IMG/VR virus record: IMGVR_UViG_647533161_000005
Strand: one strand, 5' to 3'
From: a virus
Taxonomy: Duplodnaviria; Heunggongvirae; Uroviricota; Caudoviricetes
Length of the DNA: 49,155 nt
The position numbers and the translations under genes were made by a program. The notes under the pieces are model-generated. The model searched no databases and had not been told where the DNA came from. It saw only the letters and a program-made list of their open reading frames with translations. This document shows, one piece after another, positions 6,481-49,155 of the stretch. The stretch's first letter is position 1; each line of letters begins with the position of its first letter.

Positions 6481-6888
6481 TTATTTATTTGCGCTTCTTT
6501 TGCGAGCTTTGAGTAGTTCTTCAAAAAGTTTGTTGAAATTCTCAACTCGAGCACGCATCTCTGACAACAGAGCCTTTTGCTCTGACTCAGGCAGTGCGTC
6601 GAACAGTTGAAGCAACTCTTTTTGATCTTCTGTCAGATTAACTGGCTGATTATCTGGGATCGGTTCGCCTGGTTGCTTATCTTCATCTCCAAAAAGAAGC
6701 CAAGTCGGCGAGCACTGAAGCGCCTGGCTCAGTGCGAATAATCTCTTCCCCGCTGGCTGTGTTTCATCTCTTTCCCATTGAGAAATTGTTACGTGAGCCA
6801 CTTTGACCAGCTTACCTAATGCGGCCTGAGACAGTTTTAATTTTTTACGCCTGTATAAGAGGCGAGCACCGAAGGTTTCGTTTTTCAT
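6481..6888 (-). CDS. dicA: DicA-like HTH repressor (CI/C2 analogue)
   Basis: 135-aa ORF with an HTH (LSQAALGKLVKVAHVTISQWERDETQPAGKRLFALSQALQCSPTWLLFGDEDKQP) and C-terminus ...MRARVENFNKLFEELLKARKR matching my recollection of K-12 DicA; divergent from the dicC-like gene. Confidence 0.85.
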   Translation of the reverse strand: MKNETFGARLLYRRKKLKLSQAALGKLVKVAHVTISQWERDETQPAGKRLFALSQALQCSPTWLLFGDEDKQPGEPIPDNQPVNLTEDQKELLQLFDALPESEQKALLSEMRARVENFNKLFEELLKARKRSANK

Positions 6889-39988: not shown

Positions 39989-42900
39989 ATGGGAAAAGGT
40001 GGCGGTAAGGCACACACGCCTCGTGAGGCGAAGGATAATCTCAAATCCACGCAGATGATGAGCGTGATTGATGCGATTGGTGAGGGACCGATAGAAGGTC
40101 CGGTGAAGGGACTGCAGAGTATCCTGGTGAACAAAACCCCGCTGACGGACACGGACGGTAATCCCGTGATACACGGTGTGACGGCGGTCTGGCGCGCCGG
40201 GGAGCAGGAGCAGACACCACCGGAAGGCTTTGAGTCCTCCGGTGCTGAAACCGGACTGGGCGTGGAAGTGACGAAGGCAAAACCGGTGACGCGCACCATT
40301 ACGTCCGCGAACATTGACCGCCTGCGGGTTACCTTCGGGGTGCAGTCACTGGTGCAGACCACGTCAAAGGGCGACCGTAATCCTTCCTCTGTCCGGATTC
40401 TGATTCAGTTACAGCGTAATGGCCGCTGGGTGACGGAAAAGGATGTCACCATTAACGGCAAGACCACCTCGCAGTTCCTGGCCTCGGTGATTCTGGATAA
40501 TCTGCCTCCCCGGCCCTTTAACATCCGGATGGTCAGGGAGACGGCGGACAGCACCACGGACCAGCTGCAGAATAAGACGCTGTGGTCGTCATACACCGAA
40601 ATCATCGATGTGAAACAGTGCTACCCGAACACGGCCATTGTGGGGCTGCAGGTGGATGCGGAGCAGTTCGGCGGCCAGCAGATGACGGTGAACTACCATA
40701 TCCGCGGTCGCATCATCCAGGTGCCGTCAAACTATGACCCGGAAAAACGCACGTACAGTGGTATCTGGGACGGCAGTCTGAAACCGGCATACAGCAACAA
40801 CCCGGCCTGGTGCCTGTGGGACATGCTGACTCACCCGCGCTACGGCATGGGAAAACGTCTGGGGGCGGCGGATGTGGACAAGTGGGCGCTGTATGCCATC
40901 GGGCAGTACTGCGACCAGACGGTCCCGGATGGTTTCGGGGGGACCGAGCCGCGGATGACCTTTAATGCGTACCTGGCACAACAGCGTAAGGCGTGGGACG
41001 TTCTCAGTGATTTCTGCTCTGCGATGCGCTGTATGCCGGTATGGAACGGCCAGACGCTGACGTTCGTTCAGGACCGTCCGTCGGATGTGGTGTGGCCGTA
41101 CACCAACAGCGATGTGGTGGTGGATGATAACGGCGTGGGTTTCCGCTACAGCTTCAGTGCCCTGAAGGACCGGCACACGGCAGTGGAGGTGAATTACACC
41201 GACCCGCAGAACGGCTGGCAGACCTCCACGGAACTGGTGGAAGACCCGGAAGCCATACTGCGCTACGGACGCAACCTGCTGAAGATGGACGCGTTCGGCT
41301 GTACCAGCCGCGGTCAGGCCCACCGTGCCGGGCTGTGGGTGATAAAGACCGAACTGCTGGAAACGCAGACGGTGGATTTCACGCTCGGGTCACAGGGGCT
41401 GCGTCACACACCCGGTGACATCATTGAAATCTGTGATAACGACTATGCCGGGACCATGACCGGCGGACGTGTCCTGTCCATCGATGCCGCCAGCCGTACC
41501 CTGACGCTGGACCGGGAGGTGACACTGCCGGAGACCGGCACGGCCACTGTTAATCTGATTAACGGCAGCGGTAAGCCGGCGAGCGTGGCCATCACCGCAC
41601 ACCCCGCGCCTGACCGGATACAGGTCAGCACCCTGCCGGATGGTGTGGAGACATACGGTGTGTGGGGACTCTCCCTGCCGTCACTGCGTCGTCGCCTGTT
41701 CCGCTGTGTCTCCATCCGGGAAAACACGGACGGCACCTTTGCCATCACGGCGGTGCAGCACGTACCTGAAAAAGAAGCCATCGTGGATAACGGGGCCCGC
41801 TTTGAGCCGCAGTCAGACACCCTGAACAGCGTTATCCCACCGGCAGTGCAGCACCTGACGGTGGAGGTGAGCGCAGCTGACGGCCAGTATCTGGCGCAGG
41901 CTAAATGGGACACGCCGCGGGTGGTGAAGGGCGTGCGCTTCAGTCTGCGCCTGACCAGTGGTAAGGGAACGGATGCCAGACTGGTGACCACCGCCATCAC
42001 CGCAGACACGGAGCACCGTTTCAGCGGCCTGCCACTGGGGGAATACACCCTGACGGTGCGGGCCATTAACAGCTACGGCCAGCAGGGCGAACCTGCGACC
42101 ACCACCTTCCGGATTGCCGCACCGGCAGCACCGTCGCGGATTGAGCTGACGCCGGGGTATTTTCAGATAACGGCGGTCCCGCGTCTTGCGGTGTATGACC
42201 CGACGGTACAGTTTGAATTCTGGTTCTCAGAAAAACGCATCACGAACACGGCACAGGTGGAAAAATCTGCCCGTTATCTGGGGACCGGCAGTCAGTGGAC
42301 TGTCCAGGGGAGCCGGATTAAGCCGGGGACGGATTTCTGGTTTTACGTGCGAAGCGTCAACCTGGTGGGAAAATCTGCTTTTGTGGAAGCCAGCGGGCAG
42401 CCCAGCAATGATGGTGAAGGGTATCTGGAAATTTTCCGGGGGCTGATAGATGAGACGCTTCTGGGCCAGGCACTGAAAGAGCGCATTGATGCTTCAGCGC
42501 TGCGTACGGAGGTCACGCAACTGGAAGAAGACATCCGTCAGCGGATGGACACGGATATCGCAGAAGTGACCCGGAAAATCGGGAAGGCGGAAAACAGCCT
42601 CACGCAGCTGGTTGCGAAAAAGAATGAGGACCAGACACTGGCCATCGCGCAGGTGAGCCAGAAAGTGGACCGGGTGAGCAGTGAAATCTCACAGACTGTC
42701 AGCCAGGGGCAGTCAGAAAACGCCCGACAGATAGCACAGGTCCGCCAGTACGTGGATAAAAAAGGGAGTGAAATTACCTCGACCACGGATAAAAAGCTGG
42801 GTGACCAGGCCGTGACCATACAGCAAATCCAGCGGGTTCAGTCAGACACGCGCAATGAGCTGAATGCCATGTATATGCTGAAGGTGCAGAAAACAAAAAA

Positions 42901-43681
42901 CGGTATTCCCTATGTGGCCGGGATTGGTGCGGGGATTGAGGATGTTGATGGTCAGACGCTGAGCAGTATTCTGCTGCAGGCGGACCGTATCGCGATGATT
43001 ACCCCGGAGAATGGCAACACCACGCCGCTGTTTGTGGCGCAGGGGAATCAGCTGTTCATGAACGACGTGTTCCTGAAGCGACTGTTTGCGGTGAGCATCA
43101 CGTCATCCGGCAATCCTCCTACGTTTTCCCTGACGCCGGATGGCAGGCTGACAGCCCGCAATGCGGATATCAGTGGAGCCATCACGGCGAATACCGGCAC
43201 GCTCAATAATGTCACCATTAACGAGAACTGTGTCATCAGAGGGAAACTGTCTGCAAACCAGATTGAAGGCGATCTCGTTAAAACAGTGGGTAAGGCTTTC
43301 CCCCGTGACTCCCGTGCACCGGAGCGTTGGCCATCAGGAACCATTACCGTCAGGGTTTATGACGATCAGCCGTTTAACCGGCAGATTGTTATTCCGGCGG
43401 TGGCTTTCAGCGGTGCCAGACATGAGCGGGAGAACAGCGATACTTATTCGTCATGCCGCCTGATAGTACGGAAAAACGGTGCTGAAATTTATAACCGTAC
43501 CGCGCTGGATAATACGCTGATTTACAGTGGTGTTATTGATATGCCTGCTGGTCGCGGCCACATGACGCTGGAGTTTTCTGTATCAGCATGGTGGGTAAAT
43601 GGCTGGTATCCCACAGCAAGTATCAGCGATTTGCTGGTTGTTGTGATGAAGAAAGCCACTGCAGGCATCACGATTAGCTGA
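39989..43681 (+). CDS. J: Tail tip / host specificity protein J
   Basis: 1230-aa ORF matching lambda J along its length ([19 protein letters not shown]...[16 protein letters not shown]...[34 protein letters not shown]...). Confidence 0.95.
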
Positions 43682-43748: not shown

Positions 43749-44348
43749 ATGCGTAAAGTTTGTGCAGCCATTTTGTCCGCAGCCATCTGTCTGTCCGTAT
43801 CCGGTGCGCCTGCATGGGCGTCTGAACATCAGCCCACACTGAGCGCGGGGTATCTTCATGCCCGTACGAACGCTCCCGGCAGCGATAATCTGAACGGGAT
43901 TAACGTGAAATACCGTTATGAGTTTACGGACGCGCTGGGGCTGATTACGTCCTTCAGTTATGCCAATGCTGAGGATGAGCAAAAAACGCACTACAGCGAT
44001 ACCCGCTGGCATGAAGATTCCGTGCGTAACCGCTGGTTCAGCGTGATGGCGGGGCCGTCTGTACGCGTGAATGAATGGTTCAGCGCGTATGCGATGGTGG
44101 GTGTGGCTTACAGCCGTGTGTCGACTTTCTCCGGGGATTATCTCCGCGTAACTGACAACAAGGGGAAAACGCACGATGTGCTGACCGGAAGTGATGACGG
44201 TCGCCACAGCAACACGTCTCTGGCGTGGGGGGCTGGCGTGCAGTTTAACCCGACCGAATCCGTAACCATTGACCTTGCTTATGAAGGTTCCGGTAGTGGC
44301 GACTGGCGAACGGATGCATTTATTGTTGGTATCGGATACCGTTTCTGA
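43749..44348 (+). CDS. lom: Lom-like outer membrane protein (Ail/Lom family)
   Basis: Signal peptide then a beta-barrel-like sequence ending GYRF; position after J as in lambda. Confidence 0.85.
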   Translation: MRKVCAAILSAAICLSVSGAPAWASEHQPTLSAGYLHARTNAPGSDNLNGINVKYRYEFTDALGLITSFSYANAEDEQKTHYSDTRWHEDSVRNRWFSVMAGPSVRVNEWFSAYAMVGVAYSRVSTFSGDYLRVTDNKGKTHDVLTGSDDGRHSNTSLAWGAGVQFNPTESVTIDLAYEGSGSGDWRTDAFIVGIGYRF

Positions 44349-44499: not shown

Positions 44500-47400
44500 A
44501 TGACAGTAAAAATTTCTGGCGTGCTTAAAGATGGCACAGGAAAACCAGTACAGAACTGCACCATTGTGCTGAAGGCCAGACGAACCAGCAGCACGGTGGT
44601 GGTGAACACGGTGGCCTCTGAAAATCCGGATGAAGCCGGACGTTACAGCATGGATGTTGAGCATGGCCAGTACAGCGTCACCCTGCTGGTTGAAGGTTTT
44701 CCGCCTTCACATGCCGGGACCATTACCGTCTATGAAGGTTCCAGACCAGGTACGCTGAATGATTTTCTCGGTGCCATGACGGAGGATGATGTCCGACCGG
44801 AGGCACTGCGCCGCTTTGAGCAGATGGTGGAAGAGGTGTCACGTAACGCCTCCGCGGTTGCACAGAATACGGCAGCCGCGAAAAAATCAGCCAGCGATGC
44901 CAGTGCATCAGCCAGCGAGGCGGCAACTCATGCAACCGATGCTGCAGCCTCAGCACGTGCCGCCAGCACGTCAGCCGGACAGGCCGCGTCGTCGGCTCAG
45001 TCAGCGTCTTCCAGCGCAGGAACGGCATCGACAAAGGCCCGTGAAGCAGCAAAAAGTGCTGCTGCTGCAGAGTCATCAAAAAGCGCGGCAGCTACCAGCG
45101 CCAGTGCCGCGAAAACGTCAGAAACGAATGCCGCAGCATCACAAAAATCGGCAGCCACTTCTGCATCCACAGCGACCATGAAGGCGTCAGAAGCTGCCAC
45201 CTCGGCACGGGGTGCGGCGGCCTCAAAAGAGGCAGCGAAATCTTCAGAAACGAATGCATCATCAAGTGCCAGTAGTGCAGCTTCCTCGGCAACGGCGGCA
45301 GGAAATTCCGCGAAGGCGGCAAAAACGTCCGAGACGAACGCTAAGTCTTCTGAAACAGCAGCGGGACAGAGCGCCTCAGCTGCGGCAGGTTCAAAAACAG
45401 CGGCTGCATTATCTGCCAGTGCCGCGTCAACAAGTGCCGGGCAGGCCTCAGCCAGTGCCACCGCCGCCGGAAAATCGGCAGAAAGCGCCGCATCATCCGC
45501 TTCAACAGCCACAACGAAGGCTGGCAAAGCCACTGAGCAAGCCACTGCAGCAGCGAGGTCTGCTTCTGCAGCAAAAACCTCTGAAACAAATGCAAAGACT
45601 TCAGCAGACAATGCTGCTTCCTCTAAGGCGGCAGCCGCATCGTCAGCCAGTTCAGCGGCGTCATCGGCATCATCTGCGTCTGCTTCAAAAGATGAGGCGA
45701 CCAGACAAGCGTCAGCAGCGAAAGGTAGTGCCACGACAGCAACAACGAAAGCATCAGAGGCGGCAGGCAGTGCGACGGCTGCATCTCAGAGCAAAGTTGC
45801 TGCTGAATCCGCGGCAACGCGCGCCGAGACAGCAGCAAAACGGGCAGAGGATATTGCATCCGCCGTGGCGCTGGAGGATGCGAGCACGACGAAAAAGGGG
45901 ATAGTACAGCTCAGCAGTGCAACAAACAGCACCAGTGAAAAGCTGGCGGCAACGCCAAAGGCAGTTAAAACTGTTAAAGATAGTTCAGTTCAAAAAACTG
46001 GCGACACAATGGGAGGGCAGTTAAAAATCAGCACGATAAATGCTCTTCGAATATTCAACCAAGCCTTTGGCCTTATTTTTAGGCGTTCCGAAGATCATCT
46101 TCATCTTATTCCGACTAATGAAGGGGAGGGGAAAATGGAGACATCGGTTCATTAAGACCATTCTCTATAAACTTAAGATCAGGGTTGGTGTCCATCGGTA
46201 ATGGACTAAAAGTTGGTGGTAGTGTTACTGGTAATTTGACCGGAAACGCAGATACTGCGACCAAGATCAAGACAGCACGTAAGATTGGGGGCGTGGCATT
46301 TGATGGATCGGCAGATATCAACTTGCCTGGAGTCAACGCTACCGGTAATCAAAACACTACAGGTAATGCTGCGACCGCCACGAAACTTCAGGCAGCCAGA
46401 ACGATTAACGGTGTGTCATTTGATGGTAGTGCAAATATCACATTGACCCCTTCAAATATTGGGGCATTGGCATTAACTGGAGGGACTCTTTCAGGTGGTT
46501 TAACTGCTGCTGGTGAGGTTATTTCAAGGTCAGCAAATGGTCTGCGTATTGCCTATGGCAACTATGGATTCTTTATCCGAAATGATGGATCAAACACATA
46601 TTTTATGTTGACAGATTCGGGTAACAGTCTTGGTACGCACAATAGCTTAAGGCCGTTTATAATTAGTAACCATACTGGCAATGTTACAATTGCAACTAAA
46701 TTAAACGCGAGTGGTGGTATCACTGGATCTTTATCGGGTAATGCAAGCACAGCAACCAAATTGCAAACTGCAAGGACAATTAACGGCGTAAAATTTGACG
46801 GCTCGGCAAATATTGAAGCGTTTCCGCCAGGTGTTCCGCTGCCGTGGCCATCAGATACACCACCTGCAGGTTATGCGATCATGCAGGGGCAGACGTTTGA
46901 TAAGGCAGCATATCCGAAACTGGCTATTGCCTATCCTTCAGGTGTTATTCCAGATATGCGCGGCTGGACAATCAAGGGCAAACCCGCCAGTGGCCGGGCC
47001 GTATTGTCTCAGGAACAGGACGGCATAAAATCGCACACCCACAGCGCCAGCGCATCCAGTACGGATTTGGGGACGAAAACCACATCGTCGTTTGATTACG
47101 GCACTAAATCCACGAATAACACCGGGGCGCATACGCACAGTCTGAGTGGCTCTACGGGGTCTGCCGGTGTTCATACTCATGGTAATGGTATTCGTTGGCC
47201 AGGAGGCGGCGGTTCTGCGTTAGCATTTTATGATGGCGGTGGGTTCACTTATGTCCAGAATTCACAGTATCAAGTAAGCCCGGAGACTTCTTCCTATAGA
47301 TCGTATTATCAACGTATTCAGACACAGTCAGCAGGTGCTCATACCCACTCGCTGTCTGGTACTGCAGCAAGTTCTGGCGCACATGCACATACTGTAGGTA

Positions 47401-47525
47401 TTGGTGCGCATACGCACTCCGTTGCGATTGGTTCACATGGACACACCATCACCGTTAACGCTGCGGGTAACGCGGAAAACACCGTCAAAAACATCGCATT
47501 TAACTATATTGTGAGGCTTGCATAA
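44500..47525 (+). CDS. stf: Side tail fiber protein (Stf-like), split into two ORFs by a 1-nt frameshift at the G4A4 run near 46128-46135
   Basis: ORF 44500..46155 (Stf N-terminus with long Ala/Ser/Thr-rich repeat region) and ORF 46185..47525 (C-terminus with GxHxH-type repeats). With one extra A the reading is ...[37 protein letters not shown]..., joining the frames. Confidence 0.85.
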
Positions 47526-48109
47526 TGGCATTCAGAATGAGTGAACAAGCACGGACCATAAAAATTTATAATCTGCTGGCCGGAACTAATGAATTTATTG
47601 GTGAAGGTGACGCATATATTCCGCCTCATACAGGTCTGCCAGCAAACAGTACCGATATTGCACCACCAGATATTCCTGCTGGCTTTGTGGCTGTTTTCAA
47701 CAGTGATGAGGCATCGTGGCATCTCGTTGAAGACCATCGGGGGAAAACGGTTTATGACGTAGCGTCAGGGGACGAGTTATTTATTTCTGAACTCGGTCCG
47801 TTACCGGAAAATGTTACCTGGTTATCGCCGGAAGGGGAGTTTCAGAAGTGGAACGGCACAGCCTGGGTGAAGGATACGGAAGCAGAAAAACTGTTCCGGA
47901 TCCGGGAGGCGGAAGAAACAAAAAACAACCTGATGCAGGTAGCCAGTGAGCATATTGCGCCGCTTCAGGATGCTGCAGATCTGGAAATTGCAACGGAGGA
48001 AGAAACCTCATTGCTGGAAGCCTGGAAAAAGTATCGGGTGTTGCTGAACCGTGTTGATACATCAACTGCACCTGATATTGAGTGGCCTACGAACCCTGTC
48101 AGGGAGTAA
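47525..48109 (+). CDS. tfa: Tail fiber assembly protein (Tfa)
   Basis: [59 protein letters not shown]... matches lambda Tfa; TAATG overlap with stf. Confidence 0.9.
47940..48109 (+). repeat. Direct repeat copy 1 (tfa 3' end)
   Basis: About 170 bp that recur at 48985..49155 with roughly 85-90 percent identity by eye. Confidence 0.7.
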
Positions 48110-48122
48110 TCATTGGGATTAT

Positions 48123-48166
48123 GCCGCAGCACGTCTTAAGCAAGAACGTGCTGCGGTTGGATGCTA
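48123..48166 (+). terminator. Hairpin terminator after tfa
   Basis: ccgcagcacg...cgtgctgcgg stem followed by a T-rich tract. Confidence 0.5.
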
Positions 48167-48820
48167 TTTTTTCCCTGAAGCGGAAAACATTACTACAGTA
48201 CCTTGAACCTTGGTTTTAACATTCTCGAAATGCTCTGAGAGTATATGTGTTAAGCCTTCTTCGGAATCTTTTGTGTTTGAAAAGATGCCTTTCTGATTGT
48301 AAATGCGCATCAGTTTTTGACCGAAGCTATTGTGCACAACTCCATCGCCAAGAATTGTGGCTCCGTATAGAGTTCCATCGTCAGTTAAGGCCTGCGCCGC
48401 ATTGCGTATTACACAGCTTTTTGTAGATATATTTCCAGGCAGGCAGTGAAGAAGGTAAAACATGGAAATGGAATCAAATTGACCATGTAACGCCGCGGGA
48501 TAAGGTTCAAAAACATCATGGCTAATTTTATGTTTAATTTTTGATTCCCCAGCCCTTGTAGATGCCGCGTTCAGGCTAGCTTCGTTCAAATCCATTAAAG
48601 ATATCAGACTACTCTCAGGTACGTGAGTAAGGTAAAACCCAGTTCCAACACCAATATCCAGATGGTTGTTACCTACATGTTCCAGAAAGTGTGGAAGAAG
48701 GTGTTCCTTTGTAGGACATCCCCATGCAAGCCGATTTGATACTCCCAAAACCCACCAGTCATAAAGCTTTAGGGTAAGTGGTGTGTAAATTTTAGCCCCA
48801 TCATCTGTGTTTTTTTTCAT
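48164..48820 (-). CDS. Class I SAM-dependent methyltransferase
   Basis: GxGxG SAM-binding motif (LDIGVGTGFYL) and a downstream acidic residue; AT-rich, on the opposite strand to the tail genes. Start at the second ATG (GGTGA upstream); an alternative is 48832. Confidence 0.7.
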   Translation of the reverse strand: MKKNTDDGAKIYTPLTLKLYDWWVLGVSNRLAWGCPTKEHLLPHFLEHVGNNHLDIGVGTGFYLTHVPESSLISLMDLNEASLNAASTRAGESKIKHKISHDVFEPYPAALHGQFDSISMFYLLHCLPGNISTKSCVIRNAAQALTDDGTLYGATILGDGVVHNSFGQKLMRIYNQKGIFSNTKDSEEGLTHILSEHFENVKTKVQGTVVMFSASGKK

Positions 48821-48888
48821 TGATTTCACCATGTTATAGTTTTATTTGTGAATTAAATCAATTATGGCGATGAATTACAAGGGGTTAA

Positions 48889-49155
48889 ATGCTGCCGCAG
48901 CATAGCGATATTGAAATAGCCTGGTATGCTTCGATACAGCAGGAGCCGAATGACTGGAAGACCGTCACCACACAGTTCCACATCCAGGAATTCAGTGAGT
49001 ATATTGCGCCACTGCAGGATGCTGTAGATCTGGAAATCGCAACGGCGGAAGAAAGATCGTTGCTGGAGGCATGGAATAAATATCGGGTATTGTTGAATCG
49101 TGTTGATACATCAACTGCACCTGATATTGAGTGGCCGACTTCACCTGCAGAGTAA
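48889..49155 (+). CDS. Tfa-like C-terminal-domain protein (chimeric or remnant tail fiber assembly gene)
   Basis: 88-aa ORF with an unrelated N-terminus and a C-terminal half nearly identical to the Tfa C-terminus. Confidence 0.5.
48985..49155 (+). repeat. Direct repeat copy 2 (tfa-like 3' end)
   Basis: Same as copy 1; encodes ...[50 protein letters not shown]. Confidence 0.7.

Follow-up and report, generated by a model that had tools for sequence, protein, structure and literature searches.

The closest described counterpart of the locus considered here lies in the cryptic prophage DLP12 of Escherichia coli K-12 MG1655, where the genes follow one another in the order tfaD, ybcY (a pseudogene), tfaX, appY and ompT, with tfaD-ybcY-tfaX being b0561-b0563. 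No functional study of ybcY was found in the literature searched with ybcY, tfaX, and DLP12 with methyltransferase; the gene appears there in a promoter table, in a mention of its genomic context beside ompT in uropathogenic strains, and in a negative result on Hha toxicity. Among the generally known morons of lambdoid phages are lom and bor of lambda, and the cargo and effector loci that follow the tail-fibre genes in prophages of enterohaemorrhagic and enteropathogenic E. coli (EHEC and EPEC) and in the Salmonella Gifsy prophages. The DNA analysed, hereafter the window, is the 49,155-nucleotide virus record IMGVR_UViG_647533161_000005 (Caudoviricetes). Near its right end a ybcY-family gene for a class I S-adenosylmethionine (SAM)-dependent methyltransferase (48164..48820, minus strand, 218 aa from the conserved start) stands between a complete tail fibre assembly gene, tfa (47525..48109, plus strand), and a second tfa 3' end or stub (48982..49155, plus strand), which forms the larger part of an 88-aa open reading frame (ORF) of the 'TfaX' type (48889..49155, plus strand). 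This is the DLP12-type tfaD-ybcY-tfaX arrangement of lambda-like E. coli prophages, already annotated, common and not new, and the region is probably the right end, with the cargo, of a lambdoid prophage at the potC/potB site, carrying ybcY as a widespread moron together with a recombination scar.

The tfa-ybcY-tfaX arrangement and its distribution

Gene order, orientation, the sequence of the cassette, the promoter hexamers and the chimeric start of the stub are the same in the window and in DLP12. The two differ in that ybcY is a pseudogene in K-12 but intact in the window, and in that tfaX of DLP12 encodes 61 aa, diverges in its 3' part and precedes appY-ompT, whereas the stub of the window reaches the natural stop codon of tfa and is the last gene ahead of potB. 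The K-12 ybcY carries a 2-nt deletion at the junction of an A8 run and the start codon (positions 6788-6810 of comparison locus L009, equal to window 48817-48822), which takes away the ATG used by all homologues, and otherwise shows few substitutions relative to ybcY of the window. Among the sequences inspected, the start-codon deletion is confined to those of K-12 type.

Without the repeats, the cassette comprises 872 bp (48110-48981) and is found with at least 95% identity in 3,840 of 5,426 complete E. coli genomes (71%), the identity in K-12-type strains being 98.6-98.7%. The whole tfa-ybcY-stub arrangement, with at least 80% of the query covered, is present in 1,495 genomes. It is also present in 14 phage records, some of them of phages grown on K-12, C and ECOR13, so that inducible lambdoid phages are among the carriers, and in the record of PhiR26_1 the methyltransferase is labelled 'putative uncharacterized protein YbcY'. 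A recent or unusual insertion does not agree with the presence of the block in K-12 DLP12 and in most complete genomes. The initial annotation of the window had named, as a finding that would speak against its own reading, a tandem tail-fibre module made of two complete tfa genes with the methyltransferase as a conserved resident; the resident is indeed conserved, as the prevalence indicates, but the second tfa copy is just a fragment. In strain QML220601 the gene upstream of ybcY is not tfa but pin-ydfK-ynaM, so the cassette is not always enclosed by a pair of tfa ends.

The segment 47400-49155 is found 100% identical in many E. coli chromosomes. In ATCC 25922 and strain 7/2 it forms the right end of a lambdoid prophage flanked by potC, next to the integrase, and by potB. 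The final prophage gene is the tfa stub, and potB lies about 230 bp further in the identical genomes; nothing is cut off at the end of the window, which the initial annotation had left as a question, since it closes on the stop codon of the stub itself. At its other end (1-2500) the window seems to begin in potD/potC, by its correspondence with strain 7/2 (L023), and to hold the whole lambdoid prophage of about 48 kb, which has an integrase beside potC and the lysogen-expressed accessory genes dicB, hokD, rem, iraM, a ydaT-family toxin gene and lom.

Direct repeats and the edges of the foreign block

The complete tfa encodes 194 aa, matches Pfam Caudo_TAP with an E value of 1.9e-44, is called tail fiber assembly protein in the annotations of identical genomes, and is in its body about 95% identical to lambda tfa; this lambda-like allele is here named W-type, and that of the stub X-type. 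As the initial annotation had noted, direct repeats of the tfa 3' end surround the methyltransferase gene. A repeat finder and our own alignment place the left copy, the 3' end of the complete tfa, at 47933..48090 (plus strand) and the right copy, within the stub, at 48982-49139 (plus strand), giving 158 ungapped nucleotides of which 137 are identical (86.7%). The earlier figure of about 170 bp is a little high yet acceptable, the last approximately 19 nt before the stop codon of each copy being divergent with an indel. Both copies are in one reading frame, with a longest identical run of 38 nt (48050-48087) and 19 codon differences, 11 of them synonymous, and since both match the C-terminal end of Caudo_TAP their similarity reflects homology and not chance.

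The junctions of the imported block were mapped by three-way alignments of the window, lambda and the Citrobacter freundii locus L015, and on the right side with the Citrobacter phrog_3893 gene and the tfa of the window. The sequence after tfa is homologous to that after lambda tfa, including a GC-rich hairpin of 35 nt between the convergent tfa and ybcY (48123..48157), which has a homologue downstream of lambda tfa in the window-lambda alignment and is part of the tfa module. Homology to the C. freundii ybcY locus begins at 48158, 5-6 nt beyond the ybcY stop codon, putting the left junction at 48158..48163 with its edge at 48157/48158. The Citrobacter homology then runs through the promoter region into a plus-strand ORF up to 48975. 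This part (48889..48975, plus strand) corresponds to the first approximately 29 codons of a phrog_3893-family gene that is oriented divergently to ybcY and is truncated here. In C. freundii the homologous ORF is complete, encoding 80 aa on the minus strand (L015 4699-4941), and its whole length matches phrog_3893 with an E value of 7.6e-38, while residues 3-37 of the 88-aa ORF of the window match it with 3.9e-5. At the right junction (48976..48993, plus strand) the phrog_3893 fragment is joined in frame to tfa codon ~137 with a short microhomology of CAGG type. The foreign block is thus about 830 bp long, from 48158 to about 48985, and holds ybcY, the divergent promoter region and the approximately 29 phrog_3893 codons.

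Judged from these alignments, both joints of the cassette are illegitimate and not the result of homologous exchange between tfa genes, and the N-terminus of the short ORF, described earlier as unrelated, is a fragment of the original divergent neighbour of ybcY. The in-frame fusion to a different tfa allele, diverged by about 13%, accounts for the presence of two tfa 3' ends in direct orientation. If insertion of the cassette had instead duplicated its target site, and the two ends had since diverged where they stand, this would agree with repeats on either side of the insert that share orientation and frame. The difference between the copies, however, amounts to 13%, while the cassette varies by no more than 5% across the 3,840 genomes; the sequence past each stop codon differs, the right copy is without the hairpin, and the left junction falls past the stop codon and hairpin of tfa but the right one in the middle of tfa, so that such an origin is extremely improbable.

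A query consisting of the tfa body, the repeat and the sequence downstream of the stub was covered in one piece in 72 E. coli genomes, which have tfa at potB without the cassette. One of them is the EPEC strain E2348/69, where a prophage at the potB site has a full-length tfa as its last gene and ybcY is absent. In this prophage an integrase-core fragment of an insertion sequence (IS) element abuts tfa and replaces its first ~25 nt (L018 3550-3858), and stf is shortened; the prophage is itself decaying. The switch between alleles was examined in three of the 72, E2348/69, PEC148 and 20AR1039. Their tfa genes show no X-specific base at 20 diagnostic sites through 48049 and match the W allele at 13-17 of them; an X base is shared at up to four sites, two of which are also variable in lambda, and these look like ordinary allele polymorphism. 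From 48088 the three genes are of X-type, and this continues into the sequence downstream of the stub as far as potB. Being W-like through 48049 and X-type from 48088, they must change allele inside the 38-nt identical block. This is the product expected if homologous recombination between the repeats removed 1,049 bp and regenerated an intact hybrid tfa, and the repeats probably mediate loss of the cassette rather than gain.

The initial annotation regarded the methyltransferase as cargo at the tail-fibre-distal hotspot, acquired by recombination between tfa-like sequences. The first part holds, but the proposed mode of acquisition is at odds with edges at 48157/48158 and 48976-48993 that are both illegitimate. 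A phage with a single tfa might still have gained the gene by homologous recombination at tfa-like sequences, leaving the repeats as footprints of acquisition: the cassette is flanked by tfa 3' ends with a 38-nt identical block, cassette-free relatives occur at the same attachment site, and the conserved tfa 3' end, common to many phages, could be a portable homology arm for cargo exchange. The edges of the foreign block are nevertheless found off the repeats, one after the tfa hairpin and the other inside the phrog_3893 gene where it is joined to mid-tfa, and the tfa of the cassette-free prophages is lambda-like up to the identical block. Neither the phage collection, where the best non-cassette match to the stub reaches only about 88%, nor the three cassette-free potB prophages contain a full-length tfa with an X-type interior, which argues against the cassette-free state as the direct ancestor of the stub. 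Homologous acquisition is accordingly considered unlikely, and illegitimate joining, with the repeats probably serving later loss, is preferred.

The ybcY gene and its product

An in-frame ATG at 48832 would give an ORF of 48164-48832, the 222 aa of RefSeq. In an alignment of 34 sequences all 33 homologues begin at the second in-frame ATG, corresponding to M5 of the window, and the gene is therefore best placed at 48164-48820, on the opposite strand and exactly where the initial annotation had it; the ORF is intact. A Shine-Dalgarno-like GGTGA, read directly from the sequence, precedes the start at 48820, which is also favoured by a -10 element abutting the ATG at 48832. The putative σ70 promoter of ybcY (48833..48861, minus strand), TTGATT and TATAAC spaced by 17 nucleotides, occurs just once in the window, 0 occurrences being expected by chance. 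A table from genomic SELEX (systematic evolution of ligands by exponential enrichment) with the K-12 RpoD holoenzyme gives the same hexamers and spacing for ybcY, marks an H-NS site in the ybcY/tfaX spacer, and lists a weak divergent promoter for tfaX in K-12 (PMC3946193). At the other end of the gene the hairpin begins 7 nt past the ybcY stop codon, with a centroid stem whose energy on both strands is -24 to -25 kcal/mol and a z value of about -4 to -4.5. The terminator scan called no canonical intrinsic terminator after ybcY, and the hairpin probably serves as a stop signal shared by tfa and ybcY. RefSeq has a 45-aa 'hypothetical protein', WP_001309429.1, at 48082-48219 (plus strand), extending over the tfa stop codon and the hairpin into the 3' end of the oppositely oriented ybcY, and this ORF looks like an annotation artefact.

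The methyltransferase gene has a guanine plus cytosine (GC) content of 41.2%, against 48.2% for tfa and 50.8% for the window, in line with the lower GC reported at first. It is inserted between sequences that are adjacent in relatives and deviates in base composition, as is typical of a moron; lambda has tfa and the hairpin but no ybcY. From the sequence, ybcY seems to behave as a classic moron, with its own putative promoter, a hairpin end, 41% GC and signs of purifying selection. Like lom, bor, and the Gifsy and EHEC/EPEC cargo genes it is a lone gene of deviant GC at a tail-fibre-distal position, likewise inserted between sequences adjacent in relatives, and would have a promoter of its own and a stop signal; its own relatives adjoin cargo of the sodC, sopA, perC and ompT type. 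It differs from these morons in that the putative stop signal was borrowed from the tfa module and not brought in with the gene.

The window gene is a member of the YbcY family, comprising phrog_2132 (unknown function; E value 4.2e-157, 218/218 positions) and the orthologues of K-12 b0562. The assignment to class I SAM-dependent methyltransferases, for which a check with hidden Markov models had been suggested, is borne out by four Pfam families past their gathering thresholds, Methyltransf_12 (37.5 bits, cutoff 30), Methyltransf_23 (29, cutoff 27), Methyltransf_25 (27.7, cutoff 27) and Methyltransf_11 (24.6, cutoff 21.2). A database search gave 2,296 homologues in Enterobacterales, Aeromonas, Shewanella and Pasteurellaceae. 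Invariant in the 34-sequence alignment are motif I (DIGVGTG), D81, an N-terminal YDWWVL...N..AW.C.T and LLHCLPG, and the searches used did not tie the last two motifs to any characterised enzyme. An AlphaFold2 model built from the alignment (predicted local distance difference test score, pLDDT, 90.4; predicted template modelling score, pTM, 0.86) has the seven-stranded alpha/beta (Rossmann) fold, in which motif I is rich in glycine and strand 2 is followed by an acidic residue. The top Foldseek matches in the PDB are JHAMT, bacterial phosphatidylethanolamine N-methyltransferase, C-methyltransferase domains of polyketide synthases (PKS), SgvM and phosphoethanolamine methyltransferases, with E values of 1e-11 to 1e-9 and 13-21% identity. 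Sequence and profile searches of the PDB gave weak matches to JHAMT and UbiG that support the fold class only. Compared with such small-molecule and lipid methyltransferases (insect JHAMT, UbiG, PmtA, PKS C-methyltransferase domains, SgvM, BelI), YbcY shows only 11-21% identity and template modelling scores of about 0.55-0.67. YbcY would be a SAM-dependent methyltransferase located in the cytoplasm, with a small molecule or a lipid as its substrate.

The earlier remark that the protein does not resemble a DNA methyltransferase is supported, as a regular-expression search of YbcY found neither (D/N/S)PP(Y/F/W) nor a PC motif, there is no DNA methyltransferase among the best 50-60 structural matches and no extra domain in the 218 aa, and the close structural neighbours are all small-molecule, lipid or natural-product enzymes. 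This also bears on the idea that the enzyme modifies a nucleic acid, either phage or host DNA, with an anti-restriction or epigenetic effect, or tRNA or rRNA. Against it stand the missing DPPY/NPPY and PC motifs, the lack of a target-recognition domain and the nature of the top sequence and structure matches, as well as the homologues, which in many genera are single chromosomal genes with no restriction partner, and a nucleic acid target is judged very unlikely. A role in a defence system was rejected, the sole PADLOC match being mad2 with an E value of 0.009 and 12.9 bits, and no meaningful defence-system component was found.

Comparison with orthologues gave ratios of nonsynonymous to synonymous substitution (omega) of 0.21 for C. 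freundii, 0.11 for Salmonella enterica, 0.17 for Citrobacter braakii and 0.12 for Enterobacter hormaechei, indicating that ybcY is a functional gene under purifying selection. It is intact also in minimal DLP12 remnants that keep only int', tfa', ybcY and ompT. The homologue contexts came from Enterobacter, Salmonella (two), Citrobacter (two), Yersinia, Aeromonas and another member of Enterobacteriaceae. Homologues in other genera stand singly between long spacers, often in islands with sodC, sopA, perC, autotransporters or IS elements. In C. braakii (L012-L014, 5001-10657) the homologue is found in a degraded prophage or cargo island by the gene sodC for a periplasmic Cu,Zn superoxide dismutase, a SopA-like effector and DinI, and in Salmonella (L010, 1-4411), likewise in such an island, it adjoins PerC and an autotransporter. 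In C. freundii an intact DinI-like gene is located directly downstream of ybcY (L015 5745-5996). A frameshifted 'DinI family' fragment given by RefSeq in the spacer between ybcY and the stub of strain EC11 (L020 4798-4877, equal to window 48907-48986, minus strand) was not used, as it had no Pfam match at E values up to 10 in the three minus-strand frames.

A tentative possibility is that YbcY is a selectively maintained lysogenic-conversion enzyme, that is, a stand-alone small-molecule or lipid methyltransferase spreading as a single-gene unit among the prophages and islands of Enterobacterales, which E. coli might keep, often by ompT and despite decay of the prophage, for its ability to modify or detoxify a specific compound of host or environmental origin.

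The tfaX-type stub, neighbouring genes and significance

The 88-aa ORF matches phrog_2341 over 88/88 positions (E value 2.4e-60), and matches Caudo_TAP with 6.1e-25 over profile positions 75-131 of 131 only, so that the N-terminal part of the domain is missing. In tblastn searches of 50,697 phage records its residues 1 to ~26 matched only cassette-bearing records, agreeing with the earlier statement that the N-terminus is unrelated to Tfa, while the residues from ~27-32 on match the tfa of lambda, Mu, P1, P2, APSE and others. Relative to Tfa proteins such as lambda Tfa, Mu U and P2 G, the stub retains the conserved C-terminal ~57 residues, but the N-terminal two thirds (~136 residues) are replaced by 29-31 residues of the phrog_3893 protein. 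The start of the stub, with the phrog_3893 piece and the junction, is conserved across loci, and the tfa-derived part decays in various ways. In K-12 the 3' part is divergent and the annotated product has 61 aa; in PhiR26_1 and QML220601 homology to the stub ends near 49121 and is followed by an alpha/beta hydrolase gene and ompT; in the B2-type strain A4 there is no stub and ybcY adjoins ompT, as also published for CFT073, UTI89 and 536. RefSeq calls the stub a pseudogene missing its N-terminus.

The ORF could alternatively encode a functional mini-chaperone or second assembly factor in a compact tandem tail-fibre module. The reading frame is kept across the fusion, the ORF has a PHROG family of its own with all positions matched, 11 of the 19 codon differences are synonymous, and the weak divergent tfaX promoter is listed in K-12. 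Yet the product begins with part of an unrelated gene in place of the first ~136 residues of Tfa, and there is no fibre gene for it to serve. In K-12, PhiR26_1 and QML220601 the C-terminal end is altered or cut short, B2-type strains that keep ybcY have none of the ORF, and RefSeq lists it as a pseudogene. We hold such a function to be very improbable, and the 88-aa ORF is probably a scar, a non-functional fusion and not a working chaperone.

In the explanation preferred here, with ybcY as a moron at the cargo end of the prophage and the stub as a scar, ybcY would be transcribed leftward in the lysogen from its own σ70 promoter, independently of the phage late operon. Its transcription would probably be damped by H-NS and end at the hairpin shared with tfa, and the product would be kept for its benefit to the host. 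The two repeats would be substrates for homologous recombination, an exchange that would delete the cassette and leave an intact hybrid tfa. Several observations weigh against parts of this explanation. The SELEX data are from in vitro binding of RNA polymerase to K-12 DNA, in which ybcY is a pseudogene, and the hairpin at 48123-48157 has no canonical T-run. The direction of loss rests on the position of the allele switch and is inferred, not proven, and the 88-aa ORF is conserved enough to form its own PHROG family, so that a residual function is conceivable. A substrate of YbcY is not indicated by the named NCBIfam families, where no model came near its cutoff (CpaM 18.0 vs 180, RquA 16.9 vs 175 and PmtA 15.7 vs 390 bits), nor by gene neighbourhood, as no neighbour gene was shared in seven non-E. 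coli homologue contexts.

Upstream of tfa are J (39989-43681), lom (43749-44348) and the side tail fibre gene stf (44500-47525), the last split into two ORFs of 551 aa (44500-46155) and 446 aa (46185-47525) by the loss of one G from a G5 run (46123-46131). The lost G is the sole difference from the intact 3,027-nt stf of strain 7/2, and the split could be a real inactivating frameshift, recalling that in stf of lambda PaPa, or a homopolymer sequencing error. In the N-terminal half of stf (44875-45600) there is a degenerate 33-nt repeat family of five copies, 67-100% identical, encoding an Ala/Ser/Thr-rich region.

As a genome feature the locus matters little, being an annotated arrangement present in most E. 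coli genomes, and the chimeric origin of 'TfaX' argues against its annotation as a tail fibre assembly protein. It may be regarded as a clean natural example of how illegitimate joints make direct repeats that can later allow a gene-restoring homologous deletion. If YbcY should be a lysogenic-conversion enzyme, the flanking tfa repeats would make the ybcY cassette reversibly losable. Intact and selected, ybcY is among the most widespread prophage cargo genes of E. coli, and the gene is thus a reasonable target for knockout and metabolomics studies.

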